From: a virus
Taxonomy: Duplodnaviria > Caudoviricetes
DNA length: 64,000 nucleotides
Strand: one strand, 5' to 3'
IMG/VR virus record: IMGVR_UViG_3300017919_000016
Coordinates: 27,965-91,964 of that record
In this document: positions 10,566 through 34,590 of the stretch, piece by piece
Position numbering within the stretch: the first letter of the stretch is position 1
Layout of the letters: every line of letters begins with the position of its first letter
Notes under the pieces: generated by a model
What the model was told of the DNA's origin: nothing
Seen by the model: only the letters and a program-made list of their open reading frames with translations
Database searches by the model: none
Program-made: the position numbers and the translations under genes

Positions 10566-11807
10566 CTACTCATCAGGACCATCACCGCCAGACTCATCCA
10601 GGGCTTTCTTTGCATAAGCCCCGGCCATCTCTAGAGGCAGCATGTTGCCATTCACCAGATACCAATCACCACCGTCTTCTTCCGAGATTGGATCCATGTT
10701 CTCCATCCTTCTTACATCATTGACGGAGAAGAATCCGTTCTGAATACCGATGGCGTAACCATCCATCCTGGATTTATAATCCCCTCGCATCAGTGCCGAT
10801 GCATTGAAGGACACGAAGCACTGACCTTTCTCTTTTTCTAGAAAGAGCTTCTTGTTCATGGCCTGCTCTATTCGAACCAGCCAAGGCCGGATGGTATGGA
10901 CCACAAAGCTGATGGACTGGTTCTCAATGTTACTGAATGAACTCTTGCTGAGATCCGCCACCATATGGGGAGGCACCTGAAAGATTCTACAGATTTCCTC
11001 TATCTGAAACTTCCTGGTCTCAAGAAACTGCGCATCGGAGTTTGGCATGCTGATGGCTTGATACTGAAGACCATCTTCAAGAACTGCCACCTTATTGCTA
11101 TTTCCACTTCCTCCATAGGCCGCCTGCCAAGCATCTCTCACCTTTGTAGGATCCTTGATGGTTCCTGAAGTTGAAAGAATACCACTTGGTGTAGCGTTAT
11201 TGGCAAAGAATCTACCGCCATATTCTTCAGCGGCTATGTTCAGTCCGATGGCATTTTTCGCAAGGGCCACTGGTGAATAACCCATGACACCGTCAAAGCC
11301 AAGACCCGGTACATGAAGCACATCTTCCGGTCCTAAATAATGGGTGGTGGTGTCCTTCCTGTAAGCATAGTAAAGATTGCCATTCTTATCTCTGTCCACC
11401 GTCATCTTGTCGGGAAGCAGAGGATACAGATGCACCACCTCTCCTTTACCATTTCGAATGATCTGACAGTAGGCATTCCCCCAAAGAAGAAGGTGAGTCA
11501 TCATGGTCTCCCTCAGAGTAAAAGACGTCATCTCCGGATTCGGTTCATCATGCAAAATCCTATACAGTGGATGGGTGTACATCTTTTCTTTACCGTCCCC
11601 TTTGTACTGATACGTATGAAGAGGTAAAGATGCCACCGTCTCTGCAATAATTCTCACGCAGGCGAAGACTGCTGTTGTCTGCATGGAGCTTCGCTCATTG
11701 ACTATTTTCCCAGAGACACTTTGCCCCATATAAAAGTTCGGAGCGCTGCTAACACTGTCTGTGGGTTCTGCCCTGGCTTTAAAGAGCCATTTAAAAAAGT
11801 TCGCCAT
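10566..11807 (-). CDS. Portal protein, HK97 family, copy B
   Basis: AVFACV, LLLWGNAY, FQVPPH, FSNIE. Confidence 0.96.
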   Translation of the reverse strand: MANFFKWLFKARAEPTDSVSSAPNFYMGQSVSGKIVNERSSMQTTAVFACVRIIAETVASLPLHTYQYKGDGKEKMYTHPLYRILHDEPNPEMTSFTLRETMMTHLLLWGNAYCQIIRNGKGEVVHLYPLLPDKMTVDRDKNGNLYYAYRKDTTTHYLGPEDVLHVPGLGFDGVMGYSPVALAKNAIGLNIAAEEYGGRFFANNATPSGILSTSGTIKDPTKVRDAWQAAYGGSGNSNKVAVLEDGLQYQAISMPNSDAQFLETRKFQIEEICRIFQVPPHMVADLSKSSFSNIENQSISFVVHTIRPWLVRIEQAMNKKLFLEKEKGQCFVSFNASALMRGDYKSRMDGYAIGIQNGFFSVNDVRRMENMDPISEEDGGDWYLVNGNMLPLEMAGAYAKKALDESGGDGPDE

Positions 11808-11826
11808 AATTGTTGTTCACCCCCTT

Positions 11827-13383
11827 CTATCCTAAAATGATCATGTCCCGTTCATCATAGATAGAGCCTTCATCATCCGGTGGATTTACCGTAGCTCTGG
11901 CAAGACCCATGATTAAAGCCACGATACCATCGATCTTTTCTGATGATTTTTCCTTGTCCACCTTAATGTTTCCTGCAGGGTCCGTTCTGACCACAATGTT
12001 ATCTGCCATCCACCGAAGAACGGGATGTCCTCCATGGGCTATCTGCTTGCTTAAAGTAAGCCGCATCAAGTCCTTTGTAGGTGGAGACATATCCTTAAAG
12101 CCCTGACCAAATGGCACCACGGTAAATCCCATTCCTTCTAGGTTCTGACTCATCTGTGTGGCACCCCATCTGTCATAGACAATTTCTCTGATGTTGTACA
12201 TCTCACCAAGTCGCTCGATGAACTTTTCTATAAATCCATAGTGGACCACGTTTCCTTCTGTGAGATTAAGTAGTCCCTGCCTATGCCAGATGTCATAGGG
12301 AACGCTGTCTCTTTTCACCCGCTGATGAAGGGTTTCTTCTGGTAACCAAAAGTATGGGAGCACCTGAAACTTATCTCCCTCTTCTAAGGGTGGAAACACG
12401 AGTACAAAAGCTGTAATGTCACTGGTAGATGACAGGTCCAGACCTCCGTAGCAGACTCGTCCTTTCAGCTCTTCCGGGTCTACAGGATAATTACAAAGGT
12501 CCCACTTATCCATGGGCATCCATTTGATTTCCTGCTTTAACCACATGTTCAGCCTTAGTTGTTTAAACAAGGCGAGATCTGCCGGATCGTCTTTAACTTG
12601 ATTGTAATGCTCCCTGACTCTCTCTATAGAAATGGTATGGCCAAGACTTGGGTTGGCTTTATACCAGTTGTTTTCATCTTCAATATCCGCATCGTCCTCT
12701 AAGCCATAGATAATAGCGAGGAATGTCGGATCTATTCTCTTTCCTTCCAGTATGTCTTTTGCCTTTTGATGCATCTCCCAGCCATAGCCAGAGAGTTGAT
12801 TTCCTGCGGTGGTGAGGTATAAAAAGAGCGGTTGGGTTCTGGCATCTCCTGAACCGGTAGTCAGCATCTTGGCAAGATCCGGATTCGGATAGGTCCAAAT
12901 CTCATCAAGGATAACGCAGGAAGCATTGATCCCGGATTTTGATTTAACATCGGAACTAAGTACCTGATAGAAGCTTCCTGTCTTTGGATAGACGATTCGC
13001 TTGGTGGACCTTACCAGATTGGTCACTTTTGATAGGGTTGAATTCCCTTCAACAAAATTCATACTGGTGTTAAAAATGATGCTGGCCTGTTGTCTGTCAC
13101 AGGCGGCTACATAAACCTCTGCATTAGGTTCTCCATCAGCAAGAAGCATGTAAAGGGCTATGGCTGCGCCAAGCTCCGACTTACCATTTTTCTTACCAAT
13201 CTCCACATAGGCGGTTCGGTACTGACGGGTACCATCTTCCCTCAAGGTTCCAAAAAGTCGCCTTACCAAATCCTTCTCCCAGGGAAGTAACTTAAAAGGC
13301 TGACCGGCCCATCTGCCTTTGGTCAGCTTCAGTTGTTCGATAAAATTTATGGCGTGGTTCGCATGAGCTTCACTAAATGGCAT
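11827..13383 (-). CDS. terL: Terminase large subunit, copy B
   Basis: GKKNGKS Walker A, ILDE, GLDLS, KIDGIVA. Confidence 0.96.
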   Translation of the reverse strand: MPFSEAHANHAINFIEQLKLTKGRWAGQPFKLLPWEKDLVRRLFGTLREDGTRQYRTAYVEIGKKNGKSELGAAIALYMLLADGEPNAEVYVAACDRQQASIIFNTSMNFVEGNSTLSKVTNLVRSTKRIVYPKTGSFYQVLSSDVKSKSGINASCVILDEIWTYPNPDLAKMLTTGSGDARTQPLFLYLTTAGNQLSGYGWEMHQKAKDILEGKRIDPTFLAIIYGLEDDADIEDENNWYKANPSLGHTISIERVREHYNQVKDDPADLALFKQLRLNMWLKQEIKWMPMDKWDLCNYPVDPEELKGRVCYGGLDLSSTSDITAFVLVFPPLEEGDKFQVLPYFWLPEETLHQRVKRDSVPYDIWHRQGLLNLTEGNVVHYGFIEKFIERLGEMYNIREIVYDRWGATQMSQNLEGMGFTVVPFGQGFKDMSPPTKDLMRLTLSKQIAHGGHPVLRWMADNIVVRTDPAGNIKVDKEKSSEKIDGIVALIMGLARATVNPPDDEGSIYDERDMIILG

Positions 13384-13403
13384 AGGCGTCTCCTCCTTTC
13401 AAA

Positions 13404-13916
13404 TTAGTCGTCCTTACTCTTTTTCAGAATATCCTCCGCCTTTGGTACATTTGAAAGTAGCTCCTCCATGGCATCTCCCTCGATGGTGTTACCACTGTTA
13501 TTGATGTTGAGTCTACTTCTGGCTGATGGGCTTAGCCCAAGCTCTGAACAGAAGTTTCTCATCTGCTTAAGGTTCTGCTGGGCAATGGATACTTGAGGAA
13601 TCTGCTGAATGTATCCTGAAGCTGTCTTCAAAATGGATCCATGCTTTGAGATGAATTCCTCTGCTTCCTTCCATCTAGCATAGGCTTGACAGTACCCGGC
13701 AAAGGCAGCCATATCCACTTGAGTCAGTAGCCCCATGGCTTCCAGCTCTTTTGATAGCCTTCTCCATTCTTTCTTAGCATCCGGTTCCAGCCATGACGGG
13801 CACTTCGGTGCTATCTGTTTCGGTTTCGGTTCGTTCTTATTCAGTGGCCTTTTTCCTGGATTGCCTTCCAGCTCTTTGACCGCTGTAGGTTTTGGTGGTC
13901 TTCCTCTACCTGCCAT
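13404..13916 (-). CDS. terS: Terminase small subunit, P27 family, copy B
   Basis: GRPPKPT..GNPGKR..ELGLSPSARSRL. Confidence 0.94.
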   Translation of the reverse strand: MAGRGRPPKPTAVKELEGNPGKRPLNKNEPKPKQIAPKCPSWLEPDAKKEWRRLSKELEAMGLLTQVDMAAFAGYCQAYARWKEAEEFISKHGSILKTASGYIQQIPQVSIAQQNLKQMRNFCSELGLSPSARSRLNINNSGNTIEGDAMEELLSNVPKAEDILKKSKDD

Positions 13917-13977
13917 AACTTTCACCTCCTTCATTTACTGCAAAGAAAAAGAGCCATTTTTCAGGCTCCAAATGTTA

Positions 13978-14193
13978 TTAATTCACTTTGTTTATGTCGA
14001 CTTTAATTTCTTCAACTGCCCATCCTGTGAAGTCTTTGAACCATTCCTTTGAAAACTTCTCTGCCATCTCTTCGGTGTCCCAGTAGCACGCTTCGTCAAA
14101 ATCAAAGGTCCATTTTGGGTGGCCATCCCACATGCTGAGGTATAGCTTCTTACCCGCTTTCGTTTGCATCGTTACCGTGTAGAAAATCTCCAT
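13978..14193 (-). CDS. Hypothetical phage protein, homolog of 42318-42533
   Basis: GGAGG RBS; conserved between copies. Confidence 0.75.
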   Translation of the reverse strand: MEIFYTVTMQTKAGKKLYLSMWDGHPKWTFDFDEACYWDTEEMAEKFSKEWFKDFTGWAVEEIKVDINKVN

Positions 14194-14256
14194 TCCTTTC
14201 GCCTCCTTCGTTTTGGTATATACATATATCACTCTGAAGGCAAAATTAGTCAAGGA

Positions 14257-14466
14257 TTACTTCCCACGGATTCCTTTATAATTAAAGTTCCCTTTTCGAA
14301 TCTCTTCATGATCTGCTTCTACAGCTCTTTTGTATTCAGGGTCTTTTGTTTCCTTCTCTTTGCAACTCATGCAGATGCACTGCTCATTGAACATGGACAT
14401 AATACGTCCACCTTCTAAGATGCCACCGCAGCGGTCACAATATTTCTGACTAAAAAATCGTTCCAT
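14257..14466 (-). CDS. Small Zn-finger phage protein (CxxC..CxxC), copy B
   Basis: Near-identical to 42583-42789. Confidence 0.8.
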   Translation of the reverse strand: MERFFSQKYCDRCGGILEGGRIMSMFNEQCICMSCKEKETKDPEYKRAVEADHEEIRKGNFNYKGIRGK

Positions 14467-14479
14467 CTATCTGCACCTC

Positions 14480-14668
14480 CTACTCTATGTCTACATATTC
14501 CATCAACATGGCCAGGGCCTCATCATAACTATTGGCTTCCTTGGTGACTCGCCTAATCATTTCATCTGCCTTTTCAGGCTCCCCAGATTTCTTTAGGGTT
14601 CTTGATACAATCCCCATGAGATTAAAGATGTTACCGTTCTCTCCAATGAGTCTGCATTTAGGTTTCAT
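14480..14668 (-). CDS. Small conserved phage protein, copy B
   Basis: LIGENGNIFNLMG motif; homolog of 42803-42991. Confidence 0.8.
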   Translation of the reverse strand: MKPKCRLIGENGNIFNLMGIVSRTLKKSGEPEKADEMIRRVTKEANSYDEALAMLMEYVDIE

Positions 14669-15488
14669 CGACTTCATCAACCTTTCTGAATGCACCGTTT
14701 CCTTCTAGGTGCTTAAGAAGTGTCTTTCTGGTTTCCTTATATTCCGGACCATTCATCCCGATACGGATTAGCCAGGTTCTAAGGGCATACTTGGGATTAT
14801 CATCCTGTGCCTGTTTAAAGGATGCGCGGTTTAAGGTTCTGGCATAGTTCGCTATGAGAACACATAAATCCTGAAATGCTTTGATTTTTTCTGGAGTAAG
14901 TTCTGCTTCTAAAAGCCAGAAGCTAAAGGTCCTCTCTTCAAAATCAATCTGAAATCCTGGACATCTCTCGGCCCCTAGTGTTTCAATGGCAGCTCCCAAT
15001 CCCTCTAAACCCTCTATGTTCTCATTGTTTAAATCTTCAGCAAAGCCTTCATCCATAAAAGGTTGTTCTGTTTTAAATGCCATCATGATCAGTCGCTGCT
15101 TGCTGTAAAGCATGTTGATGATGTTCTTAAGGCTTGTAGCTGTGTGGTCTTTCATATCCATCTTAAGTTCAAGTCCATCTAGATCCTGAAGCGATGGACT
15201 CAAGGTTTCTCTACTATTTGTTTCTTGCTCTGCTTGCAGCTGTTCACGTTCATCTGAAGTTGATTCTTCCCTTACTTCAGTCGGCTCTTCTATCACAGGT
15301 TGACTTAGAATTTCTTCCATAGTGATGAGCTCACCATCTCCCTTTGTAATAGCACCATGTCTGTCGATGGTATACACTTCATTCGCTGTCCTAATTTCGT
15401 AATTAAAGGTTGGAACACTTAAGTACTTAGGTTTCACGCCCAAATGCTCTCCTAGCTTTTTAATCATTAATTTTCGGTCCATTTTCAT
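14658..15488 (-). CDS. Conserved phage protein ('virulence-related' type), copy B
   Basis: NPKYALRTWLIRIGM..L.G..AFR C-terminus; homolog of 42981-43802. Confidence 0.85.
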   Translation of the reverse strand: MKMDRKLMIKKLGEHLGVKPKYLSVPTFNYEIRTANEVYTIDRHGAITKGDGELITMEEILSQPVIEEPTEVREESTSDEREQLQAEQETNSRETLSPSLQDLDGLELKMDMKDHTATSLKNIINMLYSKQRLIMMAFKTEQPFMDEGFAEDLNNENIEGLEGLGAAIETLGAERCPGFQIDFEERTFSFWLLEAELTPEKIKAFQDLCVLIANYARTLNRASFKQAQDDNPKYALRTWLIRIGMNGPEYKETRKTLLKHLEGNGAFRKVDEVDET

Positions 15489-15654
15489 ACCTCCCTGCGT
15501 TTTTGGTACTTACATATATCACTCTAAACGCCATGATACGAGAAGGATTACCTAGGGCCAATTAGTACATTTAATTTTGCATTTTCTGCTCCGACTATGC
15601 TATATAGACCCTCTTGTTTGGCCCAGAACTTACTCTTTATGTAAAAAAGACAAT

Positions 15655-15685
15655 AAAAAAAGCCCACCACGACGCGATGAGCTGA
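15655..15685 (-). terminator. Terminator-like hairpin; similar one at ~16185-16210
   Basis: AGCTCATC..GTGGTGGGCTTTT at both sites. Confidence 0.6.
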
Positions 15686-15856
15686 AAAATCCATTTGTAT
15701 AGACGCTCTCAGAGCGATTTTAAATTCCTTCAATACATAATTCGATCACGTGAAGTAGACTGAATCGAATATACAACGTCTCATTATGTCATTGAAATCA
15801 TCAAGATCCCAAGCTACAGTTACTCTTTTCATTAAGACGAGTTTCTTCCTATTGTT

Positions 15857-15916
15857 ATGTGCTTGTTCCGTATGTACATATTCAGTATGTACTTGCTCGG
15901 TATGTGCTTGTTCATA
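15857..15916. repeat. Four degenerate 15-bp tandem repeats
   Basis: TATGTGCTTGTTCCG TATGTACATATTCAG TATGTACTTGCTCGG TATGTGCTTGTTCAT. Confidence 0.8.
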
Positions 15917-16215
15917 TAGCCTAGATGGAAGAGAATCCTATCGAAACTCAAAATTTGAAGGATCCTTGGAAAAACGTCGCTTCAGTTTGGCCTGTGACGG
16001 CTTTTTATCGATTTTAGGACCCGTAGTTCGATGTGGGGGATGAATCGCACAAATCGCCCGGAAAAGCGATTTAGCCAATTTGAGTTCAAAAAATGAAAAC
16101 AACCCACCAATATCCCGTCTCAGTCTGGTGTTTTCCCGATGCTAGAGACCTTATTGGTGGGTTATTTGAAAGGCTGAAAGTAGAAAAGCCCACCACATTG
16201 TGATGAGCTCTCGAT

Positions 16216-17625
16216 TTATCTGTTAGAGTAATACTTTTGATTAGGACTTGTCGGTTTATCGGGCATTGTGAGATTTAGAAGATTCCCTTTAACTAATGGC
16301 TTCAATATACTGTTCGCAAAATATCTCCTATCTTGCAATCCCAAGAATTCCTGAATTTCTTTTCTACTTCTAGGTTCTTTACAAAATTCCAGTATTGACT
16401 CCGTTCGCTTATCCTCAGCATCCATTTCAGCTTGGGGGGTAGCTTGGGGGGTCAATGGAATAATTGTCTTAAACACATCTCCCTCGATGAATTCAGGATC
16501 GGCACCCGAATAGATTTTATTGTACTTATATATGTTCCTAACTCCCGACCCAAGTTCATCAACCCATCCGATTTCTTTAAAGAACTTTGCAATCTTTGGG
16601 TTCTTGGGATAAGGTGAAAAGTCCTCAGGGTCAATCATTCCATGACCATGGGGCTTGTTGCCATTTTCGATAAAGACTCTGTCCTTCTCCACGACTAGCT
16701 TTGCAGGAAATGGATTTGAGAATTATCTATGGATCAATAGGTTTGAGACCGCTTCTCTGAAAATCTTATCCCTTAAACTTACACGCTGATCACCTTCGAG
16801 ATAGAATTTGTCATTGAGATGCTTGGCAATAAACTGCATTAATCTTTCGTAGCTTCTTAGAAGATTCACCCTAATATCATCCCGGTCATCATACCTGTCG
16901 AGGTTTTCTCTTCTTAAAATTGCATCTGTCCTATAGTGTGGAAGCGCTGTTTGAATCATCAGCTCACTTCCAAAAATTAAAATGCCCGCTAATGTAATCC
17001 CTTGCTTACCTGTGCTCTGATCCTTTAGATACATGCCTGCACTTTTCAGCAGCTCGATGTTATCCATCGAAACCCACGGGTGGCCGGGCTTCAAATTTCC
17101 AACCGTTTTTCTAACCCTTGTAAACAACTCATCTTCCAGCTCATCCAAGTCAGCATAGGGAAAAATTCTATTTTCTGTATATGTGGCTTGCTTTCTCATG
17201 TACAATCCAGATACTAGATTTGTATTATTTGTAATGTCAAAATCTCCATCTTCGTTTCGATCAAAGATTTTTCCCTTACAACGATGCACCTGAGAACTCT
17301 CCGGTACGTTAATGTACAGGATCGTCTTCCCATCTATTTCAACATCTTCTACTGCCAAGTAAAAAGCAGGATTGAGAGTTTGTGGATTATTAAGCGATGT
17401 AACGAAATCTTTCTTCAGCTGCTCCACAGAATCTTTATCGACGCCTACAATATCACCGTTATCCTTCACCCCAAGAAACAAATGCCCCCCGTGGCGATTC
17501 AAAAATGCGCATACAGAATCATACACATCCTTATTTAACTTCTTTTTACTCTCTTTGAATTCTACAGTAATGCTTTCACCACTACTGATTATTTTCTTTA
17601 AACTTTCTATTTTCACTTGCAACAC
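16216..17625 (-). pseudogene. AlbA_2 (Schlafen-like) / HATPase_c_4 / wHTH protein split by one in-frame TAA at 16723-16725
   Basis: GESITVEFKE..VCAFLN..GG..GV.D.G; frame continues LIHR*FSNPFPAKLVVEKD..PKNP..ELGSG..PDKPTSPNQKY. Confidence 0.88.
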
Positions 17626-17683
17626 CTCGTTTACGCCAATGCAAGGCGCTATAATTTAGTATATCCATTCAATCAGATAGTAA

Positions 17684-18013
17684 TCATGAGTTCGCGAATT
17701 TTGATATCAACCCAAAGATATACGCTGTGTTCCTAGACTGTTCTCTTACTTCCTGCCTTAGATGGGTTTCTCCATTTTTCCATCGTTCATAATATCCAGC
17801 TACATTCATAAAATCATCTTTTGTAATTTTTCTAGCTCCATTTAGTTGAACAGAAGGATTCTTATCGGGTGTGCTATCTACGTACAAATATATTTCTTTT
17901 GTATAAGCTCTAAACCACAATGGAGTTCTATTGTTTTGAGGAACTGTTGATACATCAAAAGCCTCTTCAGTTGCCGTGCTAAGAATCTGATGCCATAGCT
18001 TTTCAAAATCCAT
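17684..18013 (-). CDS. Hypothetical protein
   Basis: 109-aa ORF coupled to upstream gene. Confidence 0.75.
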   Translation of the reverse strand: MDFEKLWHQILSTATEEAFDVSTVPQNNRTPLWFRAYTKEIYLYVDSTPDKNPSVQLNGARKITKDDFMNVAGYYERWKNGETHLRQEVREQSRNTAYIFGLISKFANS

Positions 18014-18432
18014 TACTCAACACCCTCCTTCAACTGAATAATATTTCCGGGTAAAGCTTCAAACATGTCAGGGTAATGTCCACATCTTGCGCGGATCTGA
18101 TTGTACTTCGCCTGAGTCCCATCTTTCTTCAAGTACAACTTCCTTCTGTATATTTCATCTGAAAGCTCTGCAGCATGCATTTTTCTGCTTTCCACTTCCT
18201 TAAGTACAATTTTCATAGCTTCTTGTAAAGTTCTTTTAGGAATCGAAGGACCAAGAATTTTTTCAATTGGACCAGCACTCGGGTCATACTTAAGCAGAAT
18301 GTATACCGGCTCGTTGTCTTTTAGTATGACAACCTTTCCATTTTTCTCAACAATTTTCACGACATCATCCAGGTCCGTCTTCAGTTTTTCATAAGAAATC
18401 AAACTTTCCAAACTAACTTCCATAGCTCTCAC
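18013..18432 (-). CDS. Putative DNA-binding protein (Phd/YefM-like N-terminus plus winged-helix C-terminus)
   Basis: V.K.GKVVILKDNEP.YIL resembles Phd; TLQEAM..VL..MHAAEL HTH-like. Confidence 0.6.
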   Translation of the reverse strand: MRAMEVSLESLISYEKLKTDLDDVVKIVEKNGKVVILKDNEPVYILLKYDPSAGPIEKILGPSIPKRTLQEAMKIVLKEVESRKMHAAELSDEIYRRKLYLKKDGTQAKYNQIRARCGHYPDMFEALPGNIIQLKEGVE

Positions 18433-18579: not shown

Positions 18580-21500
18580 TTACTTTTTTATCGGGAGCTT
18601 CCAATATTCCCTGCGATTATCTCTTGCATTCCATCTCACACCAACACTTAGTTGATACTCAATAACGTCATCAGCTAGTAAGGTTCCTGACTTGATTAAC
18701 CTCGTGAAAATATCTCTTCTAAAGGGAACTCTCTCTTTCTTGGGATTGAATGGCTCCAAAGCAAGGAGTTCTTTCCTCAACCACTTTAACTCTTCACTAA
18801 GTGCACTCACTCTCTCCTTTCTATCTTCATAGCTTCGAATCTTATCGTGAAGATCCATGATATGGTCAGTAATCACTTTGATCGCACCGGTATCCTCGCC
18901 ATGTTTCTTTCCCTCTTCAACAGTCTCGTAGAGTTTCTGGTAGTAGATTTCGATTTCTTTTTCTAAACGTTCAAGTTCTTGCTCCTCGTGAGGTTTCAGG
19001 CTAACCTCTTCGATAACTTCATTTACCAATTCCGATAACTTCTTCGAGTTTTTCATTTCCTGCAGCATTGCCATGAAAGTGTGTTCGATGTTCTCTTCCC
19101 TGATAGCTTTTTCAAAACACTCCTCGGAATGGTTCTTAACAACAGAAGCTCTACACCGCCAATAATGCTTCTCCAACCCCTTATGGCTTGAAAGATGTAC
19201 AATCGGACAGCCGCAAATTCCGCATTGAAAAACCTTGAAGAACTCATCTCTAGTGTGCCGGTTTGTTTTCGTGATTTTCCTCGCCTTACTATTGATGATT
19301 CTCTGCACCTCATCCCACTTTTCTTTATCGATAATAGCTTCGTGATTATCTTCAATATAGTACATTGGCAGTTCACCATTGTTCGGGACTCTCTTCCCGG
19401 TAATGGAGTCGCTTGTGTACTTTCTTTGATAAAGCACATCTCCGATGTATGCTGGATTATTTAACATTCTACGAACTGTAGTGACCCCCCAAGCACTATT
19501 ATTCTTAGGACTTGGAATTTTATCCTCCGTTAGGCCTTTTGCAATACCCAGCATGCTTTTCCCTAATAGATACTCATCAAAGATTCTTTTAACCACGGCA
19601 GCCTTCTCGCTGTCAATTTCCCAGCTTCCATCTTTACCATAATAGAATCCATAAGGCAGTGTGCTGAGTTTAACAGATCCCCTTTCTGCTAATTTACTTC
19701 GACCCCATGTAAGGCTTTCACCAAGACTCCGCGACTCTTCTTGTGCGAGCGCGCTGTATACAGTCAGTAAGATTTCACCATCTTTTTCAGCTGTATCTAT
19801 CTCTTCTTTCTCGAACATTATAGAAACACCTAGAGCCTCTAATTCTCTCACATACTCCAAGCAATCTACAGTGTTCCTAGCAAATCTCGATATAGACTTG
19901 GTGATGACGCGATCAATTTTTCCTTTTCTGCAATCTGAAATCAACTCTTGAAAACCATCTCGATTCTCCGCCTTCGTTCCTGATACCCCCTCGTCATAAT
20001 AAACCTTAATCAGTCGATAATCAGGATTCTTTAACACAGCATAAGTGTAGTAGGCCATCTGAGCTTCCAACGATCCTAATTGCACTGGATCATCAGTACT
20101 AACTCTTGCATATACAGCGATTCTAACCTTTTTCTTGGCAGGCGGGCTATGTTGTTTACTTTCCCTGATTTCTCTTCGTATACGATCGATAATATTCTCT
20201 GAAAAGTATTTTTCAACTCTAACTGCTTGCATGTTCTCACCTCTTACTTTAGGAAATGGTGGATCTATTTCTTCCACGCCTTCAATTTCACATCCCTCTA
20301 CTAAGATGCGATATTGCTCCTTATTTTGGGATTTTAGTATCAAATCTTTCCCCATCAATTGTTCCCGCTTTAGCTCCATTTCCACTTTTCTATTCTCACA
20401 AGTCCCAACAGTCGTATGTAGATCATCATACCAATGCACCTGGTAATCTTCTAAAGAGAAAATCCTGATTTCCAAAATCCACGCTCTAAGAACATCAACA
20501 TTAGCTCTCTCTATAAAATCTTCAGGAGATTTTGCTTTTCGTAATAGTTCAATCGCGAGATCACGATACTTCCGATCTTCTTCTATCATGGTCGCTAGAT
20601 GCTCGAACTCCACTATTGCTCGCTCCACCTTTTCTTTTTCAATGATTGCTAATTCATCTTCCGATGCTCGTCTTTGATGCTCTTTCGCGATTTGTAATTT
20701 GCTTAGTAAGCTAAGGCGATGAAGTTCAAACCGATCATTTTTGTTCACCCAAATCAATTCATCCTTCATCACTTCTAATATTTTAGGATTGTTGAAATCA
20801 TACCTCTTTCTGATAATTTCCTTCATCAGTTTGAGAATCTTTTTATCGGTTAACCGTGGAGAATCACATAATCTCGCTTGTTTTTGCTTCACGCTGCAGA
20901 CCCATTCAACGCGATTCTTTTTTCTGCTCTTGTGATAGTTCACATCGCATAGGCCGCAACTTATCCTCTTCGAACAAGAGTGATGTATCTTTTTGCCAAG
21001 TCCTTTTTTTCTCCTCTTCTCCGAGAGCATATCTTTTGCTTTTTCAAAACACTCAGGTGAAAGAATTCTGGGATAGGCATTCTCAATGAGATACATATCC
21101 TTCTCACTATCTTTAAGAAATTCGACTTTTTGAGAGAGGGAACTGTTATATTGATTTGTTATCTTCTCACCAATATAAGACCTATTCTCTAAGATATTCA
21201 GTATCAATGTATGCGACCAAATAGTATGCCCACTAACGGTCTTTACACCTCTATCCGTTAAGAGTTTTAGAATTTCAGCGATTTTCATACCTCCAATAAA
21301 GAGTTCAAAGACTTCTTTTATCACCTCAGCTTCTTCTTCGTGAATGACTGCCACCTGTCCCTGTGTTGTCTTTACAATTTTATAACCGAACTGTCTTCTA
21401 TAGATTGGATTACCGGAAAGGATTCGTTTGTTTTGGCCCCACTTACTATTGTGGGCTATGCTCACAATTTCATCTTGGCTGATCGCCGCCAAGGCTGTTA

Positions 21501-21954
21501 GAAAGAACTTGTTTTTTCTTTCCATACTATTGATGTTTTCTTTCTCAAAAATTACCGGTATTCCAAGATCACTTAAATGGTCCACAACTTCCAGAAGATC
21601 TTTCGCGTTTCTAGAAAACCTAGAGATGCTCTTCGTTAACACCAAATCTATCAATCCATCGTCGCAATGTCTAAGGAGTCTTTTGAACCCGGGACGACCA
21701 TCTATCGTTACACCTGATATTTCCTTATCATAATATAAACCCACCAACTTATACTCATCATGACTTCTGATGTAATGGGTGTAATATTTTAACTGATTCT
21801 CGAGAGAGTTGATTTGCTTATCACCGCTCTGTCTACTAAGCCTGCAATAGGCAGCAACTCTTAACTTTCCATTACTCTCTTTTTCTGGCTCTTCTTTTTC
21901 CTTTGGCCATAGCACTTCAACCGTCTTTTTCCTCACAACAAAAACTCCTTTCAC
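18580..21954 (-). CDS. Double large serine recombinase (two complete LSR units fused)
   Basis: Two YxRxS catalytic motifs, two KSISRFxRN, two Zn ribbons; internal RBS and ATG at 20232. Confidence 0.92.
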   Translation of the reverse strand: MKGVFVVRKKTVEVLWPKEKEEPEKESNGKLRVAAYCRLSRQSGDKQINSLENQLKYYTHYIRSHDEYKLVGLYYDKEISGVTIDGRPGFKRLLRHCDDGLIDLVLTKSISRFSRNAKDLLEVVDHLSDLGIPVIFEKENINSMERKNKFFLTALAAISQDEIVSIAHNSKWGQNKRILSGNPIYRRQFGYKIVKTTQGQVAVIHEEEAEVIKEVFELFIGGMKIAEILKLLTDRGVKTVSGHTIWSHTLILNILENRSYIGEKITNQYNSSLSQKVEFLKDSEKDMYLIENAYPRILSPECFEKAKDMLSEKRRKKGLGKKIHHSCSKRISCGLCDVNYHKSRKKNRVEWVCSVKQKQARLCDSPRLTDKKILKLMKEIIRKRYDFNNPKILEVMKDELIWVNKNDRFELHRLSLLSKLQIAKEHQRRASEDELAIIEKEKVERAIVEFEHLATMIEEDRKYRDLAIELLRKAKSPEDFIERANVDVLRAWILEIRIFSLEDYQVHWYDDLHTTVGTCENRKVEMELKREQLMGKDLILKSQNKEQYRILVEGCEIEGVEEIDPPFPKVRGENMQAVRVEKYFSENIIDRIRREIRESKQHSPPAKKKVRIAVYARVSTDDPVQLGSLEAQMAYYTYAVLKNPDYRLIKVYYDEGVSGTKAENRDGFQELISDCRKGKIDRVITKSISRFARNTVDCLEYVRELEALGVSIMFEKEEIDTAEKDGEILLTVYSALAQEESRSLGESLTWGRSKLAERGSVKLSTLPYGFYYGKDGSWEIDSEKAAVVKRIFDEYLLGKSMLGIAKGLTEDKIPSPKNNSAWGVTTVRRMLNNPAYIGDVLYQRKYTSDSITGKRVPNNGELPMYYIEDNHEAIIDKEKWDEVQRIINSKARKITKTNRHTRDEFFKVFQCGICGCPIVHLSSHKGLEKHYWRCRASVVKNHSEECFEKAIREENIEHTFMAMLQEMKNSKKLSELVNEVIEEVSLKPHEEQELERLEKEIEIYYQKLYETVEEGKKHGEDTGAIKVITDHIMDLHDKIRSYEDRKERVSALSEELKWLRKELLALEPFNPKKERVPFRRDIFTRLIKSGTLLADDVIEYQLSVGVRWNARDNRREYWKLPIKK

Positions 21955-22129
21955 TAGAGCCCACCTGTAAGGTCCCAGGTATGTTATTAATGGCTCTAGT
22001 CCAGAGATAATGCAAGTACTATCTCCAGAATGAAAGAAGTTCTTTTTCTCGATCTGTTTCTCATGTCATGGCATTAGGTTTTCTTAGGTTTTGTAAGTCG
22101 AGAGTTGTGAATCTCTGTTTCAGAAGAAG

Positions 22130-23812
22130 CTATCTTGATTTCTTTTTCTGCGCTCTTCTCCTCGCGTCTACTTCATAAGAGGCTCCGCATTTGAGTCTAA
22201 ACTCTACTCGCCATTTATTGTAGACGATTCCTTTCTCAAGAACTTTGGCCAGGATGTCTGGAACAAAGTCTTCTTCGGGGCCTTTGATGTTCTCTAAGAC
22301 TTCAATTAGGATTTTCAGATTCTCTTCAAGGTATTCACTTTCCTTTTTGTTCTCACTCAACCCATCATACTCCATTTGGAGAATCTCCTGTTCGTATATT
22401 AAGTGTCGCATAGTCGCCTCGTAAATGACCTCATTCGATCCTGTTGATCTGGCAGCCATTGCAGTAATTTTATCTGTAATCCTATCGATTTGGGTGCCTA
22501 GTTCATTTAGCCTTCTGTCTTCTTCCTCTGTTAATGAGGCTTCTTCAATCGCCAGTTCCACATCTTCAATCAGTTTATCTCTGTCATTTTTAATATCAAA
22601 GAGAAGTTTCATGAAGGCCCTTTCTAACTCTTCTTCCCAAACATAACTGCATTTACAATCTTTAAAATTTGGATCTCGTTTGGAAGCGACTCTACAGTGC
22701 CAGGCCGTGAACTTCACAGGTGCTCTATCCACTCCGCAGTGAGTCGTGAGCCGCCTTCTGGTCACCGGCCTTCCGCACTCTCCGCAAAATAGTTTATTTG
22801 AAAATGGCGCTGCCCCGCTATAAGCCATGTTGTATTTATTGTCTGGATCCCTAAACATCTTACTACGTCTATTCAGCTCTTCTTGTACCTTTTCCCAATC
22901 TTCCTCGCTGATGATAGCTGGATGGTGATTTCTAATATAGTACTGCGGCTGATGCTCTTTATTCCTCACTCGCTCATGGGTCAGAAAATCCACCGTCACG
23001 GTCTTCTGTGCTAGGCAATCACCTTTGTATTTTTCATTTCGTAGAATTTTGTACACAGAATCTGAAGTCCAGGTCTTCTTATTTCTCGCTGTCCTAATCC
23101 CATCTTTCATCAGTTCCTTGGCAATTGTAGGTGTACCTTTCCCTTCAAGTACCTCACGGTATATTCGCCTAACCACTTCAGCCTGCTTCTCATCGATGAT
23201 AATATTTCCATCCTCGTCTTCTGTGTATCCTAGAAAGTAGGTCGTTGGAACATGGGCTTTGCCCTGTTGGAACCTTTTCTGAACACCCCACTTCGTGTTT
23301 TCTGAAATGGACCTCGACTCTTCCTGGGCCATGGATGAAAGAATAGTGAGGAACAGCTCACTTTTACTATCTAACGTGTCGAGGTTTTCCTTTTGAAAGT
23401 AAATCCCAATGCCGAGGTTCTTCAGCATTCTGATGTAGTGTAGACAGTCCAGGGTGTTCCTCGCAAATCGGCTGATGGATTTGGTGATGATGTAGTCGAT
23501 TTCTTTCTTCTGGCAACGCTCGATCATCCGATTAAACTCAACCCGGTTCTTAGTTGAAGTCCCTGACAGGCCCTCATCAGCAAAGATCTCTACGAGTTCC
23601 CAGTTAGGGTTCTTCTCTACATATTCTTTGAAGTAAGATACCTGTATATCGTAGCTGGTGGCCTGCATGGCTGAGTCTGTAGAAACACGTACATAAACCC
23701 CAATTCTTTTCTTTTGACCATCAAAGTTCTCTTCATTCCTCGAGGTCCTAGTTCGAGCTGGGATGATGCTGACCCTTGATGCTGGCAGCCTTCGTGTTTG
23801 TTCTGTATTCAT
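22130..23812 (-). CDS. Large serine recombinase
   Basis: YVRVS, KSISRFARN, AQEES, CGECG. Confidence 0.96.
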   Translation of the reverse strand: MNTEQTRRLPASRVSIIPARTRTSRNEENFDGQKKRIGVYVRVSTDSAMQATSYDIQVSYFKEYVEKNPNWELVEIFADEGLSGTSTKNRVEFNRMIERCQKKEIDYIITKSISRFARNTLDCLHYIRMLKNLGIGIYFQKENLDTLDSKSELFLTILSSMAQEESRSISENTKWGVQKRFQQGKAHVPTTYFLGYTEDEDGNIIIDEKQAEVVRRIYREVLEGKGTPTIAKELMKDGIRTARNKKTWTSDSVYKILRNEKYKGDCLAQKTVTVDFLTHERVRNKEHQPQYYIRNHHPAIISEEDWEKVQEELNRRSKMFRDPDNKYNMAYSGAAPFSNKLFCGECGRPVTRRRLTTHCGVDRAPVKFTAWHCRVASKRDPNFKDCKCSYVWEEELERAFMKLLFDIKNDRDKLIEDVELAIEEASLTEEEDRRLNELGTQIDRITDKITAMAARSTGSNEVIYEATMRHLIYEQEILQMEYDGLSENKKESEYLEENLKILIEVLENIKGPEEDFVPDILAKVLEKGIVYNKWRVEFRLKCGASYEVDARRRAQKKKSR

Positions 23813-25440
23813 TAAGCATCTCCCCCTTCTTTAAGACTGACCTCTGTTTCCTCACCAGTAACCCACACAATTCTCAATAAAAAAGATGACTCCGCTATTA
23901 CACGTGTCATCCATGCCCTTAAAAATTTTGTGCTATCTAGTTTTTTGTATAACTCATTGATAGGATTCGTTGACTCTTTAACTCTACCAAGCTCAGCAAT
24001 AGCGTCTCTTCTGTATGGATCATCTGAATCAATCATTGCCCACCAAGGTTCTCTTTCAGATATAGTTTTTTCGATAGCTATTCTCTGATTCTCAAACTCA
24101 GTACTATCTTTGTTTTCAATAACTGCCATGCTTTCTGCGAAGAGGGCTTTTTCCAGTTCTAGGCGCAGTTTATTCTGTTCCCCGTCTCTTAGCACTTCTG
24201 TGTTTAAGAGGTTCTTCTCAAGTTGAATGATTTGACGTTTTGCAGGTGCCTTTGGATCAATCTCAAACTTCTCTATAAAGGCTTTCTTCAGAGCCTTAAA
24301 AATCGTCTCATCTTTGATACCATCCATTTTACAGAGTCTTGCGCTTTTCATGCGTGTGCTACAACGCCATGTGACATATCCTCTGGTCTTGTATCTATGG
24401 TAATTTGCACCACATTCACTGCAGACAATTCTTCCGGTAAAATCATAGCGTTTACTGGGCCCGCGCTTAACCCCTTTCGTTTTAGGTTTAAGCATCTTTT
24501 GTGCACTTTCAAATGTATCTCTATCAATAATCCCTTCATGATGATCTTTGATGTAGTATTTCGTTTTTTGTCCTTTGTTCACTACCTTCTTATGGGTTAG
24601 ATAGTCTTCTGTAAATGTCTTTTGACAAACAACATCCCCTACGTAACGTTCATTTCTAAGGATTGATGTAATGGCAACGTTGGTCCAGTCATTTCTCCCG
24701 TTTGCCTTCACATAGCCATTTCTGATAAAGTGATTCGCAATTTCAGTCGGGGTTCTTCCTTCTAGAAACTGTCTGAAAATCTCGCGTACCGCGGCTGCTT
24801 CCTTTGGATCTATCACCCATCGTTTACCCTTCACCTTTTTATAGCCAAGAATTCTAACAAACCTGGCTTCGCCTTGCTCAAAGCGCTTTGATGTAGCCCA
24901 AGTGATGTTTTCTGACGTGCTTCGGCTTTCCTCTTGAGCTGTTGCTGCGAGCATCGTGAGTATAAATTCGCTCTGCATGTCCCCTGTGTAGAGATTTTCT
25001 TTCTCGAACAGGACATAGATCTTTTTCTCTCGGAGCTCTCTAATTACTTTTAAGGTGTCCATGACATTTCGAGCAAACCTTGAGATGGATTTGCAGAGGA
25101 TCAAGTCGATCTTACCAGCTTTGGCGTAGCGGATCATTTTATTGAACCCGTGCCTACTTTCCATCTTCGTTCCGGATTTGCCAAGGTCTGAAAAGACTCC
25201 AGCAAACTGCCACTCAGGGTTTGAGCGGATGTAGTTGGTATAGTGGACGATTTGATTATCAAGTGAATTCATTTGAAGCTCTTCTTCCGTACTAACCCTG
25301 CAATATGAAGCAACTCTTAATCTTTCACTATCGATCGCTAGGTTTCCCAAACTAAGTTCACTAGAACGATTTCTTGACGCTCCGTACCTAAAAGTTTCAT
25401 TGTCCATGTCTAGTGTTCTCGCTGATAAAGTTTTCTCCAC
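23812..25440 (-). CDS. Large serine recombinase
   Basis: YCRVS, KSISRFARN, CSECG. Confidence 0.96.
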   Translation of the reverse strand: MEKTLSARTLDMDNETFRYGASRNRSSELSLGNLAIDSERLRVASYCRVSTEEELQMNSLDNQIVHYTNYIRSNPEWQFAGVFSDLGKSGTKMESRHGFNKMIRYAKAGKIDLILCKSISRFARNVMDTLKVIRELREKKIYVLFEKENLYTGDMQSEFILTMLAATAQEESRSTSENITWATSKRFEQGEARFVRILGYKKVKGKRWVIDPKEAAAVREIFRQFLEGRTPTEIANHFIRNGYVKANGRNDWTNVAITSILRNERYVGDVVCQKTFTEDYLTHKKVVNKGQKTKYYIKDHHEGIIDRDTFESAQKMLKPKTKGVKRGPSKRYDFTGRIVCSECGANYHRYKTRGYVTWRCSTRMKSARLCKMDGIKDETIFKALKKAFIEKFEIDPKAPAKRQIIQLEKNLLNTEVLRDGEQNKLRLELEKALFAESMAVIENKDSTEFENQRIAIEKTISEREPWWAMIDSDDPYRRDAIAELGRVKESTNPINELYKKLDSTKFLRAWMTRVIAESSFLLRIVWVTGEETEVSLKEGGDA

Positions 25441-25677
25441 GATTCTTCCTCCTTTCGTCTAGTAAGCCATTCTATAAAAATCTTTTGAATGACCATCCAA
25501 ACACCTCTTTTTAACAAAAGACCCTGAAACGCTGAAAATTCAATGCTTCAGGGTATCGGCGTCATAGTATATATCACTTATAAACAGATGAATAGCAAGT
25601 CATTTCTACTATAAATTGGGATGAAAATAAGCCGATGCTATAGAGATAACACCGGCTAGAGTTTTGCGATTTTTCTT

Positions 25678-26673
25678 CTATTCGAACTTCATATAGCCAT
25701 CAAATCCTGCCGTTTTCAAACGGGCCATGAGATCCTCTGCATTCTTCTTTTCGCCGAATGCGCCCGCCTGGACCCGATAGAGTTTTTTGTCTCGCTTTTT
25801 CTCTGGCTCAACCTCCACACCAGCGCTGATCATGTCAAGGTTGTCTTTCGCTACCCAAGTCATAACCCCAGCCTTTTCATCCATGGTGCTTTTCAGAATG
25901 GTTTTTCCCAGTAGGACACATTCTTTGTCTCCTTTAACCACTGGTTTACCACCGGACTCATCTTGGGTGATTAAGTGGTAGTTCCACTTCACCCAGTTTG
26001 GAATAATGGGACCGCCTGGATAGTAGGTTTTGGCAGATGCCTTGATTTCTACAATATTACCAACTCCAAAGACCGTTTTACTATCATCTTCATTTTCGAG
26101 TTCTCTTTTCACAGCAGCTCTAAAGGAGTCCATATTTTCTCCATGCTTTGGAAACCAGTGCCCAACATCAGAATGATTAGAAGCAATGCCCTTCTTGTTT
26201 CCTTCTGCATGGCTGATGATATCCTTCTCGGTGAGCCCATATTTTCTGCAAAGGAACACGCAAAGATCCACTGCATTTTTCCAGGCCGCTCTAAAATAAG
26301 CCTCATGCTTTTTTGCGTCATAGCCCACCATCTGATTTCTAGAATAAGAAAACCCACCCGGCTCGCATATCTCAAAGCCGATGTGGGTATTGTTTGCATC
26401 TCCTCCGGCATGCCAACCCCTGTGATTCCAAGGAAGGTACTGCCAGATTTCTCTATCATCCAGGAAGGCATGAACACAAACCTGACGTTTGATCTCTTTC
26501 GCTTTATAGGATTTGTTCCACCAAATGAACCAGTCACCTGCCATCACACCGGGAGTTGCCGTGGAGTGGACCATGATGCCCCTCGGTGTGATCTTTCTCC
26601 CTGCGGTATAGCAATCATTTCTAGTCATGTACTTGATTCTCAGATTATTTAGTCCCATCCTTATCACCTCCAT
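25678..26673 (-). CDS. Endolysin: Amidase_2 with C-terminal SPOR domain
   Basis: VHST, WHAGG..N..IGFEICE, HSD; YRVQAGAF. Confidence 0.93.
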   Translation of the reverse strand: MEVIRMGLNNLRIKYMTRNDCYTAGRKITPRGIMVHSTATPGVMAGDWFIWWNKSYKAKEIKRQVCVHAFLDDREIWQYLPWNHRGWHAGGDANNTHIGFEICEPGGFSYSRNQMVGYDAKKHEAYFRAAWKNAVDLCVFLCRKYGLTEKDIISHAEGNKKGIASNHSDVGHWFPKHGENMDSFRAAVKRELENEDDSKTVFGVGNIVEIKASAKTYYPGGPIIPNWVKWNYHLITQDESGGKPVVKGDKECVLLGKTILKSTMDEKAGVMTWVAKDNLDMISAGVEVEPEKKRDKKLYRVQAGAFGEKKNAEDLMARLKTAGFDGYMKFE

Positions 26674-27061
26674 CCTTTAGCTGCTCTAGGATGTCTCTCA
26701 GCTTCTCTGGGACCGGTAGGCCGAGTCTTGTGGCGTTTTCGACGATACTGATTCCTTCATTGGATAGATAGAAGAAGATCACCGCAGTCCTAATGGCGCT
26801 GCCATCTCCGATAATATTCTGATCAATAATGTGTGCCACTCCTACCAAAGAAAAAATCACTACCTTCTTAAAGATGCCCTGAGCGCCTACGTCGCTAGAT
26901 AAGTGCTTTTCAAGCACCGCACACATAACACCCATGAGATAGTCAACCACTACAAAGGCAATCAGGGCATATAAAAAACCATCGTAGCCTCCTAGAAAAT
27001 AACCAAGCCATCCACCAACCGCCGCAAACATCATCTGAATGAAATTCCAAACTTCTCTCAT
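26645..27061 (-). CDS. Holin (toxin secretion/phage lysis family)
   Basis: GGYDG..D, KK, FYLSNEGISIVENA..GLPVP. Confidence 0.93.
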   Translation of the reverse strand: MREVWNFIQMMFAAVGGWLGYFLGGYDGFLYALIAFVVVDYLMGVMCAVLEKHLSSDVGAQGIFKKVVIFSLVGVAHIIDQNIIGDGSAIRTAVIFFYLSNEGISIVENATRLGLPVPEKLRDILEQLKDGGDKDGTK

Positions 27062-27152
27062 TTATATCCCTCACTTTCATAAATTCTCGTATATAAAAAG
27101 GCGCCCCCACAATGAGGACGCCTGGTGTTTCTATTCTGTTTGATTGTTTCCC

Positions 27153-28301
27153 TTAATAGGGTGCGAAGTAAATATACCCACTTGCCTTTATATAAAAGCC
27201 ATCACCCGGAATGTAGATGGCCCCATCGAATGTATCGTATTGACTTACCGCTAGATCAGGTTGATCCACCCCTTTCCAGCTGATACCATCATCGGACAAA
27301 TACATCATCTTCTCAGTGAACAAAGCGTATTTCTTCCACTCATTCATCCAGATGATATTCCTTGGATTAGAGATGTTATTACTAGCGAGGTCACCGACCC
27401 ATGAAAGATTCGTCTCCGTCATCTGTGTGGCATCGTCACTCATTACAGAGAGTTTCACATTGTAAATATAATCTCCACCCGTTTTTCTATAGTTATACTT
27501 TGTCACAAATAGCTTTTCATTTACTGACTGGATGAACATGTATCTTGTATCATTCTCGTCTTCTGGTATTGTCGTGATCCACTCATCTGGAGCCATTGAG
27601 TTAGCAATAGCTATTGATTTATCGCCGCCTACCACACCTACAAAGCTTCCTTTATGCGCTGTTAGATATTTGAAGATAGGCACCTTTTTTTCTTCAGTTG
27701 GTTCGATAAGAGTCCACTTAGTTTTCTCTTCTAATGAATCAAAGCTATGATAGATTGGAGTTTTCTCATACCACCAACTAACGACGCCACTTGATTCTTC
27801 CGCATCATATGCCGCTGTCGTCATGGCATTATAGGCTCCTTCACAGAAGCCCGCGTTATACCAAGTGATGCCATCATGAGAAGCGATGATATTAGCGAGT
27901 CCCGTAATCTTGGCCAGGAAAACTCCATCATCCGCGTAAAGTATCTCTGGTTCTCCATTTTCCCACCAAGAACAATCCACCATTGTCCACTCGCCACTAT
28001 CTTTATCAAAATATGAAACGTAAGGAGCTTTTGCTCTATACACAGCGATCTGAGCACTTCCGTTATCATAAACATTGATCTGCTTTTCATCACCCAGCAT
28101 CTCGTAACCAAAGTCTTCAAGGGTTAACTTTTCCCAGCTAAGTGAGTTCAGTCCAAGGTTTTCTACTGCATCATCGTCAAGATACTCTATCGCCTTAGCT
28201 TCATCAACTGGTGTGGTGTCAAAAAACACCATCGCGACGATTGCAATAAAAGCGACAATCATCAAACTGATGATGAGCTTACCTTTACCACTTTTTATCA
28301 C
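27153..28301 (-). CDS. Membrane-anchored/exported Asp-box beta-propeller-like protein, paralog of 28474-29547
   Basis: N-terminal KSGKGK plus ~19 hydrophobic residues; SxDGxxW boxes; colinear with upstream gene. Confidence 0.85.
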   Translation of the reverse strand: MIKSGKGKLIISLMIVAFIAIVAMVFFDTTPVDEAKAIEYLDDDAVENLGLNSLSWEKLTLEDFGYEMLGDEKQINVYDNGSAQIAVYRAKAPYVSYFDKDSGEWTMVDCSWWENGEPEILYADDGVFLAKITGLANIIASHDGITWYNAGFCEGAYNAMTTAAYDAEESSGVVSWWYEKTPIYHSFDSLEEKTKWTLIEPTEEKKVPIFKYLTAHKGSFVGVVGGDKSIAIANSMAPDEWITTIPEDENDTRYMFIQSVNEKLFVTKYNYRKTGGDYIYNVKLSVMSDDATQMTETNLSWVGDLASNNISNPRNIIWMNEWKKYALFTEKMMYLSDDGISWKGVDQPDLAVSQYDTFDGAIYIPGDGFYIKASGYIYFAPY

Positions 28302-28411: not shown

Positions 28412-28473
28412 TCAATTCGAGCGTAAAACCATCTTTTTAATCGCCTCACTCAGCTTAAGAAATGTAGTTTTCA

Positions 28474-29547
28474 TTAGTATGGGGCATAGTAAACATAACC
28501 GCTAGCTTTAGCATAAAAACCATCACCAGGAATGTACATGGCACCATCGAAGGTGTCATACTGACTTGTGGTGAAACCCGGCTGTTCAACTCCCTCCCAG
28601 TAAAGACCATCATTGGAGACACAGAGCATACTCTCTTTTAGAAGTGCGAACTTTCCCCAGTCCTCCATCCAGATGATGTTCCTTGGATTTGGGATATTGT
28701 TGTTGGCCAGATCCCCTACCCAGGAAAGATTGGTCTCGGTGATCTGTGTGGCATCATCACTCATCACACAGAGCTTTACATAGTAGGTATAATCACCGCC
28801 CACATTGGTGTAGTTGAACTTCATCACAAAGAGGACATCATTCACAGACCTGATAAACATATACCGGGTGTCGTTCACATCCTCTGGTATAGTCGTAGTC
28901 CAAAGACCGGGAGTGGCTGAACTGGCTATTGCTATGGATTTGTCTCCACCAACTACGCCGACAAAGTTTCCCTTATGGGTGGTCAGGTATTTAAAAATCG
29001 GTACCGAAGTTCCGTCAGATCCAACCAAGGTCCATGCAGTTCTTTCCTCTAAAGAGTCAAAGCTATAGAAGACTGGTGATTTGTAGTACCACCAACTGAC
29101 GATACCGGAGCCTCTGGCCATATCATAAGCCCCACATGTCATTGCATTATAAGCTCCGGGACAATACCCCGCATTATGCCAAGTGATGCCATCAAAGGAT
29201 GCGATGACATTGGCAAGGCCCACAATCTTGGCAATAAACACACCATCTGCTGCATAGAGAATCTCCGGCTGGCCATAGCTCCACCAAGGAACACTGACCA
29301 CTGTCCACTGCTTTGTGGTCTTGTTCCAGTAGGACATGTAGGGAGTCTTTGCAAAGTACACAGCAATTTGAGCGTTGCCATTATCGTAAACGTTAATCTG
29401 CTTCTCGCTGCCATACTGGGTGTAGCCAAAGTTATTATAGTATTTCTTTGACCAACTCAGTGTTGGAATGGTGAAAAGAACCTCTCCTCGTCCACCGAAA
29501 GCTGTCCAGATGGCTAGGGTGTTATTAAAAATATGATCATAGCTCAT
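28474..29547 (-). CDS. Putative tail tip / receptor-binding protein with Asp-box repeats
   Basis: Last tail-module position; aromatic-rich beta protein; SFDGITW and SNDGLYW. Confidence 0.7.
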   Translation of the reverse strand: MSYDHIFNNTLAIWTAFGGRGEVLFTIPTLSWSKKYYNNFGYTQYGSEKQINVYDNGNAQIAVYFAKTPYMSYWNKTTKQWTVVSVPWWSYGQPEILYAADGVFIAKIVGLANVIASFDGITWHNAGYCPGAYNAMTCGAYDMARGSGIVSWWYYKSPVFYSFDSLEERTAWTLVGSDGTSVPIFKYLTTHKGNFVGVVGGDKSIAIASSATPGLWTTTIPEDVNDTRYMFIRSVNDVLFVMKFNYTNVGGDYTYYVKLCVMSDDATQITETNLSWVGDLANNNIPNPRNIIWMEDWGKFALLKESMLCVSNDGLYWEGVEQPGFTTSQYDTFDGAMYIPGDGFYAKASGYVYYAPY

Positions 29548-32991: not shown

Positions 32992-33057
32992 AGTGTCTCA
33001 CCTCCTCCTCTTTAGGCATGAAAAAAGACACCTCGTCTCAAGTGTCTAAAAATCAAT

Positions 33058-33656: not shown

Positions 33657-33670
33657 CTATCTTCCCTCCA

Positions 33671-34552: not shown

Positions 34553-34590
34553 ATCCTATTCCTCCTTCAAAATAGCTGAATCCGCTTCAG

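Follow-up and report, generated by a model that had tools for sequence, protein, structure and literature searches.

Three adjacent genes on the minus strand of the 64,000-nucleotide stretch analysed here (the window; positions 27,965 to 91,964 of IMG/VR record IMGVR_UViG_3300017919_000016, a 91,964-bp provirus) encode four large serine recombinase (LSR) units. Two of the genes, LSR A and LSR B, carry one unit each, and the third holds two complete units, A'-type and B'-type, in a single open reading frame (ORF). Our best explanation for the region as a whole, which we hold with moderate confidence, is that the third gene descends from an ancient fusion of an A-type with a B-type recombinase, belongs to a four-unit module and encodes a separate recombinase that would act as a heterodimer within one chain. 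The three ORFs have exactly the sizes given in the initial annotation of this DNA (542, 560 and 1124 amino acids, aa). Every gene in the region has the same orientation, and the recombinase genes lie 3' of the tail, holin (26645-27061) and endolysin (25678-26673) genes (Table 1).

A and B each have one match to PF00239 (Resolvase) and one to PF07508 (Recombinase), and the fused ORF has two matches to each family. The Pfam zinc ribbon family PF13408 (Zn_ribbon_recom) is matched in A, B and the C half of the fused protein only, and the N half is left unscored. Its ribbon is represented by four cysteines (C333, C336, C353 and C363) that are unchanged across 18 diverse fused proteins. Since YxRxS and SRFxR are kept in four of the four units, and the N half has its four invariant cysteines, the earlier claim that all four units retain a catalytic serine motif and a zinc ribbon holds. 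The N unit comprises a catalytic domain, a recombinase domain, the four-cysteine ribbon, a helical region and a small C-terminal beta domain; the C unit is a full LSR with a zinc ribbon and a long coiled coil. As judged from their sequences, all four appear to be LSRs with the full domain set, and we predict that they recombine attachment (att) sites. In BLASTP comparisons A aligns with the N half at 32% identity over 484 aa and B with the C half at 35% over 532 aa; alignment of the cross pairs (A with the C half, B with the N half) is limited to the first 290-350 aa. LSR A has a GTG start with AAAGGAGG 5' of it, and its stop codon overlaps the start of B by 1 nt (TAATG).

We searched 5.8 billion proteins for relatives of the fused protein and found the ~1100-aa fusion to recur widely. 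About 70 clusters of 1,061-1,330 aa span at least 94% of it at 31-95% identity, with carriers among cultured Bacillaceae and Clostridia; the taxa include Alkalihalophilus marmarensis, Bacillus timonensis, Heliorestis, Desulfitispora, Proteinivorax, Proteiniclasticum and Virgibacillus. The 30 fused genes whose DNA was available, from isolate genomes, metagenomes and IMG/VR, are each one unbroken frame; none of them carries a stop or frameshift before the point that corresponds to 20232, where the C half could begin. Used by itself as a query, the N unit gave no stand-alone relative of more than 40% identity, and the close shorter matches were only fragments, on contigs of 1-2 kb. Across 18 aligned fused proteins R38/S40, R617/S619, both SRFxR motifs and both sets of four cysteines are invariant. 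Compared with an 89%-identical relative (L001), the ratio of nonsynonymous to synonymous substitution rates (Ka/Ks) is 0.10 in the N unit, 0.24 in the indel-free linker and 0.08 in the C unit, and neither half therefore looks inactive. An AlphaFold model built with the same alignment contains two folded LSR units joined by a linker with a low confidence score (pLDDT), and resembles the full-length structures of SPbeta, phiC31 and Bxb1 integrases (PDB 9dxh, 9y66, 9rah, 9iu2). All of this indicates that the fusion is genuine and ancient, with purifying selection on both halves.

A tree computed from the first 430 residues of 94-99 units agrees with the BLASTP spans in placing the N half with A and the C half with B, as the initial annotation had proposed. 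One clade unites the single A genes with all 30 N units (support 100) and the other unites the single B genes with all 30 C units (support 99); the order of the units within the fusion is that of the genes, A then B. Within each clade 28 fused units group together, and the N and C sub-trees mirror one another. Because N units group with A and C units with B in this mirrored fashion, the fusion is old, and the clade structure together with the mirrored sub-trees suggests that an A/B pair was duplicated and that one copy has been fused throughout the sampled history. Two fused proteins, P0066 and P0070, are placed nearer the single A and B genes, with their N units on the starred branch shared with single A. 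Their position hints at a second, independent fusion; an approximately unbiased (AU) test does not reject a single fusion origin (p = 0.15). The wide recurrence of the A-type/B-type fusion lends only indirect, Rosetta-stone support to a physical association of A-type with B-type units.

The order A, B, fused gene, usually directly after the lysis genes (holin, endolysin), is found in 18 loci. These are the window, a second copy in the same record, L001, L004 (Alkalihalophilus), L006 (Niallia hominis), L013 (Robertmurraya beringensis), L088 (Proteinivorax, a complete genome), L085 (three single LSRs plus a fused gene, five units in all) and ten IMG/VR loci. L001, which has the same trio and a single phage body, is 87% identical to the window from 30000 to exactly 15529, beyond which L001 runs on into polysaccharide-synthesis genes. 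Because homology stops there, we place the end of the owning prophage at 15530, and by this comparison both pairs belong to one prophage whose junction falls between 15530 and 15529. The provirus record contains 12 complete LSR catalytic units, four of them in the window. Its second structural module (window 1-15500) is 86-94% identical to 31329-43815 and owns an A gene, a B gene and a 1309-aa fused gene, all outside the window, and the earlier suggestion that each pair serves one structural module is therefore unsupported. The phage genes include those for SAM synthetase, DUF2800, a family A polymerase, VapE, SNF2, a ParB-methylase and terminase. It is a temperate phage like Streptococcus pyogenes phi1207.3, and the recombinase module sits at its right end, ~3 kb from the prophage end.

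The linker between the two units contains an in-frame Shine-Dalgarno (SD)-like site, AGAGGTGAG (20244-20236), followed by an ATG at 20232-20230 (M575), as the initial annotation had noted. A strong SD-like site with an in-frame start is present in the linker of 28 of the 30 fused genes, the exceptions being those of L007 and L085. Each fused gene has ~35-75 in-frame internal starts, and the linker start ranks first among them in 25 genes and second in three. It lies 35-62 codons 5' of the catalytic domain of the C unit, a distance in keeping with the N-terminal leader of free B; a randomly placed site would land in that 70-codon stretch in ~6% of cases. Given its persistence across 30-40% protein identity the internal start is unlikely to be a relic, and for that reason free B' is probably made alongside the full-length chain.

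The fused gene changes partners independently of A and B. In a comparison of 14 trios, N-unit and C-unit identities rise and fall together (Spearman 0.79), whereas the correlation of A or B with either fused unit is only ~0.3. Between the window and L090, A is 90% and B 95% identical and the fused units only 42-47%; between L091 and L096, A is 98% identical and the fused units 49-55%. Nucleotide identity of ~80% between the window and L090 runs through the lysis genes, A and B and ends inside the fused gene. The mosaic break is at window 21485, codon ~156 of the fused gene, just past the FEKEN motif of the N unit. In addition, L007 (3183-11178) carries a stand-alone fused double LSR (1085 aa) in an island of ~8 kb within a host polysaccharide locus, together with a HARE-HTH gene, an FRG-domain gene and a caspase-like gene. 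Because the fused gene swaps independently and can stand alone, we favour two separate heterodimeric recombinases over one enzyme of four subunits.

Under this two-recombinase reading, A and B would be translationally coupled and the fused gene would be under its own control region. A and B could pair in trans as a heterodimer, in the manner of CcrA/CcrB, and the fused protein would be the paralogous A'-B' heterodimer within one chain. The tether would hold A' to B' and block mixing with A and B, giving two dimers that may serve as two recombinases with different site pairs or directions. The fused gene would move with the right arm (cargo and end sequence) and would probably act on that end, and the conserved internal ribosome-binding site and start could also yield a free B' unit. 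The annotation had called the protein a natural single-chain heterodimeric integrase: its fused nature and the A/B character of its halves stand, and the heterodimer is a reasonable reading that we infer from them. Two target specificities for the two pairs, also proposed there, are possible, and independent recombination of the fused gene would fit this.

Several observations weigh against this reading. The L007 island may be an immobile remnant, and all other fused genes are preceded by B or a truncated B, so the fused gene may never act without A/B, and this would speak for a single enzyme of four subunits. Free B' fits poorly with a tether that serves to prevent mixing. The left end of the prophage is outside the record.

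The most serious competitor, which we regard as possible but distinctly less probable, is a single four-subunit enzyme in which A-B occupies one att site and A'-B' its partner, so that each of the four half-sites has its own reader in the synaptic tetramer. A serine-recombinase synapse contains exactly four subunits and the module has four distinct units; such an enzyme would also suit the retention of the trio in 18 loci and the B gene or B remnant ahead of nearly every fused gene. It sits poorly with A and B that are 90-98% identical alongside fused genes only 42-55% identical, with the stand-alone fused gene of L007 and with the five units of L085.

In the spacer between B and the fused gene, GTACTTGCA (22019-22011) lies within an inverted repeat, GAGATA...TATCTC, and AACATAC follows at 21985-21979. 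The same core is found 5' of all four fused genes in the record, and the repeat arms are altered in a compensating manner (GAGATA/TATCTC versus GGATATA/TATATCC); the repeat could be an operator or an RNA hairpin. Upstream of A, a promoter-like site combines ACTTGCTAT at 25600-25592 with an extended -10-like TGATATATACT, and a nearly identical 50-nt stretch precedes the record's second A gene. A 27-bp promoter motif had been thought common to both pairs; what they share is the 9-nt core ACTTGCWWT, and the flanks differ between the A and fused-gene copies. This core has seven copies on one strand of the 92-kb record, and six of these lie 5' of either an A gene or a fused gene.

An alternative is that the fused protein, rather than being an integrase of the phage, regulates recombination or sets its direction, for instance as an enzyme for excision only or as a DNA-binding factor whose catalytic residues are kept by descent. 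Its separate, conserved control region with the inverted repeat would suit this, as would the position of its gene, always last and adjoining the cargo genes. We nevertheless think this improbable: both catalytic motifs are invariant over 31-89% identity and Ka/Ks is ~0.1, whereas the catalytic residues of a purely DNA-binding factor would drift. An artefact of assembly or sequencing, or a read-through that joined two genes very recently, is next to inconceivable as the origin of the fusion in spite of the persisting SD and start of the second unit, given its recurrence in ~70 protein clusters, in the genomes of isolates and at 12 independent IMG/VR loci, the failure to find a split form, and the old co-divergence that the mirrored N and C trees represent.

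The record to the left of the window (G000:C1 1-21300) and window 18580-25440 form a stack in which the end of one element abuts the truncated B gene of the next. In total the record holds two full trios; besides these there are two fused genes, of 1235 and 1312 aa, and two B genes truncated at the N end, of 411 and 320 aa. These truncated genes belong to two layers 3' of the second trio, each an N-truncated B followed by an intact fused gene; in one layer a sharp break falls at B codon 141 (FEKEN), the point from which the gene is homologous to the intact B2. Layers of truncated B plus intact fused gene recur in Niallia hominis, two Robertmurraya species and Alkalihalophilus (L006, L008, L013, L005, L004). 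Break points in B cluster at codons ~121-145 and ~259-276, with related end sequences on their left side. One B gene of R. andreesenii is split into N and C parts by a 14.3-kb satellite-like element (L010:11564-21980 plus L008:1-7582) with a tyrosine integrase, a helix-turn-helix (HTH) repressor, a D5/NrS-1-type primase-polymerase and a capsid gene. It is inserted precisely at B codon 141, with TTCGAG common to both junctions; a different kind of element thus uses the prophage integrase gene as its landing site.

We considered whether an att site in an element's own B gene could cause the truncations. This is ruled out on two grounds: the non-coding end of the next element stands in front of every truncated B, and trios of A, B and fused gene occur intact in chromosomal context. 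Simple nesting with all left arms kept is ruled out by R. beringensis, which has a six-layer stack and only two A genes. The left arms of its older layers must therefore be gone, presumably by deletion or by collapse through homologous recombination. Overall, the B gene looks like a recurrent recombination target: incoming elements may have recombined repeatedly into residents' B genes, after which duplicated phage bodies were lost, an order of events that we infer. A bolder proposal, which we consider rather doubtful, is that the single-chain heterodimeric integrase reads a fully asymmetric site beside the unfused paralogous pair, giving two specificities of which one is aimed at the B genes of resident rival prophages. 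If true, it would explain the stacks of truncated-B and intact fused-gene remnants, which occur in four genera.

Downstream of the fused gene, the prophage right arm begins with a gene for a 139-aa protein (Table 1). Homologues of this protein occupy the same position after unfused LSR pairs (L021, L032, L154 and, weakly, L055), and another adjoins the fused gene of L007, making it a candidate regulator or directionality factor. In L001 a single ORF of 469 aa makes up the AlbA_2/HATPase_c_4 cargo gene, which in the window is divided by an in-frame stop into 300 and 158 aa in the same frame, at 90% identity. Near the early end of the prophage we observed nine overlapping 11-bp-spaced repeats (61462-61593) and a 25-bp tandem pair (62931-62980), which may be iterons or an origin. 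Two adjacent tail-tip genes (27146-28301 and 28467-29547) are paralogues with 72-73% DNA identity.

Table 1. Recombinase genes, control sequences and right-arm features (window positions unless a contig is named).
Feature	Position	Strand	Remarks
Terminator-like hairpin after endolysin gene (25657-25630), then promoter-like site 5' of A	25565..25657	-	
LSR A, A-type large serine recombinase, 542 aa	23812..25440	-	A clade in tree; catalytic Ser50 = 25291-25293
LSR B, B-type large serine recombinase, 560 aa	22130..23812	-	B clade in tree; catalytic Ser44 = 23681-23683
B-to-fused-gene spacer, 175 nt	21955..22129	-	candidate separate control region for fused gene
GTACTTGCA with inverted repeat	22003-22027; G000:C1 17805-17835, 12105-12135, 4400-4430		
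Fused gene, 1124-aa ORF, two complete large serine recombinases	18580-21954	-	
Fused gene N unit, A'-type, residues 1-534	20353..21954	-	catalytic Ser40 = 21835-21837
Linker, residues 535-607, predicted disordered	20134..20352	-	pLDDT <50
Fused gene C unit, B'-type, residues 608-1124 and stop	18580..20133	-	catalytic Ser619 = 20098-20100
Prophage right arm, 3' of fused gene	15530..18432	-	ends with non-coding end module
139-aa protein, Phd-like N-terminus and HARE-HTH	18013-18432	-	directly after last LSR gene
109-aa protein	17684-18013	-	right arm
AlbA_2/HATPase_c_4 cargo gene	16216-17625	-	in-frame stop inside

Among the known systems close to this one is CcrA/CcrB of the staphylococcal cassette chromosome SCCmec, two adjacent LSR genes from distinct clades whose products are made together and are thought to act jointly on asymmetric sites. 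Similarly, A and B are adjacent, overlap by 1 nt and fall in clades separated with support of 99-100, and SCCmec elements, too, stack at their insertion locus. However, CcrA and CcrB are separate chains with one pair per element, whereas here a second, paralogous pair is fused and the carrier is a phage. In S. pyogenes prophage phi1207.3, orf56 and orf57 are two LSR genes with a 1-nt overlap, and its authors suggest that their products cooperate (PMC4260502). Its SAM synthetase, its methylases and the placement of LSR genes behind a lysis cassette at the right end recur in our phage, but phi1207.3 has two single LSRs there and lacks a fused third gene. Of 50,697 phage genomes in GenBank, none has a record covering at least 80% of the fused protein.

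Three adjacent serine recombinase genes form the integration module of Streptococcus integrative and conjugative elements (ICEs) (PMC4701971). The ICE triplets are made up of genes with one unit each and reside in conjugative elements; our third gene carries two units, and the terminase, tail, holin and endolysin genes are those of a phage. All four of our units share the complete domain set and the fold of phiC31, Bxb1 and SPbeta SprA integrases. Those enzymes, however, are homodimers or homotetramers of one protein that work with a small directionality factor, in contrast to four different units of which two are tethered. A covalent tether that fixes partners has been engineered between an integrase and its directionality factor (PMC5737554); in the fusion described here, which is natural, an integrase is joined to a second integrase. 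The largest LSR survey, a large-scale mining study, retained only proteins of 400-650 aa (PMC10083194), and the fused class was therefore left out of that survey. In the literature searched we found no description of natural fused, tandem or double serine recombinases, an absence that is no proof. As far as we have found, then, paired LSRs (CcrAB, phi1207.3) and ICE triplets are known and a natural fused double LSR is undescribed.

Serine integrases are leading tools for large DNA insertion, and their main limit is that one protein reads all four half-sites. Because of this, programmable or asymmetric targets need heterodimers, whose pairing is difficult to maintain. A tethered heterodimer that is widespread in nature and has a defined linker would be a template for single-chain designs, and the fused integrase allows a direct test of whether tethering enforces subunit pairing. 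For the phages themselves, the repeated hits on the B gene, together with the module of four units, suggest competition at the integrase locus itself, both among related prophages and by satellites.

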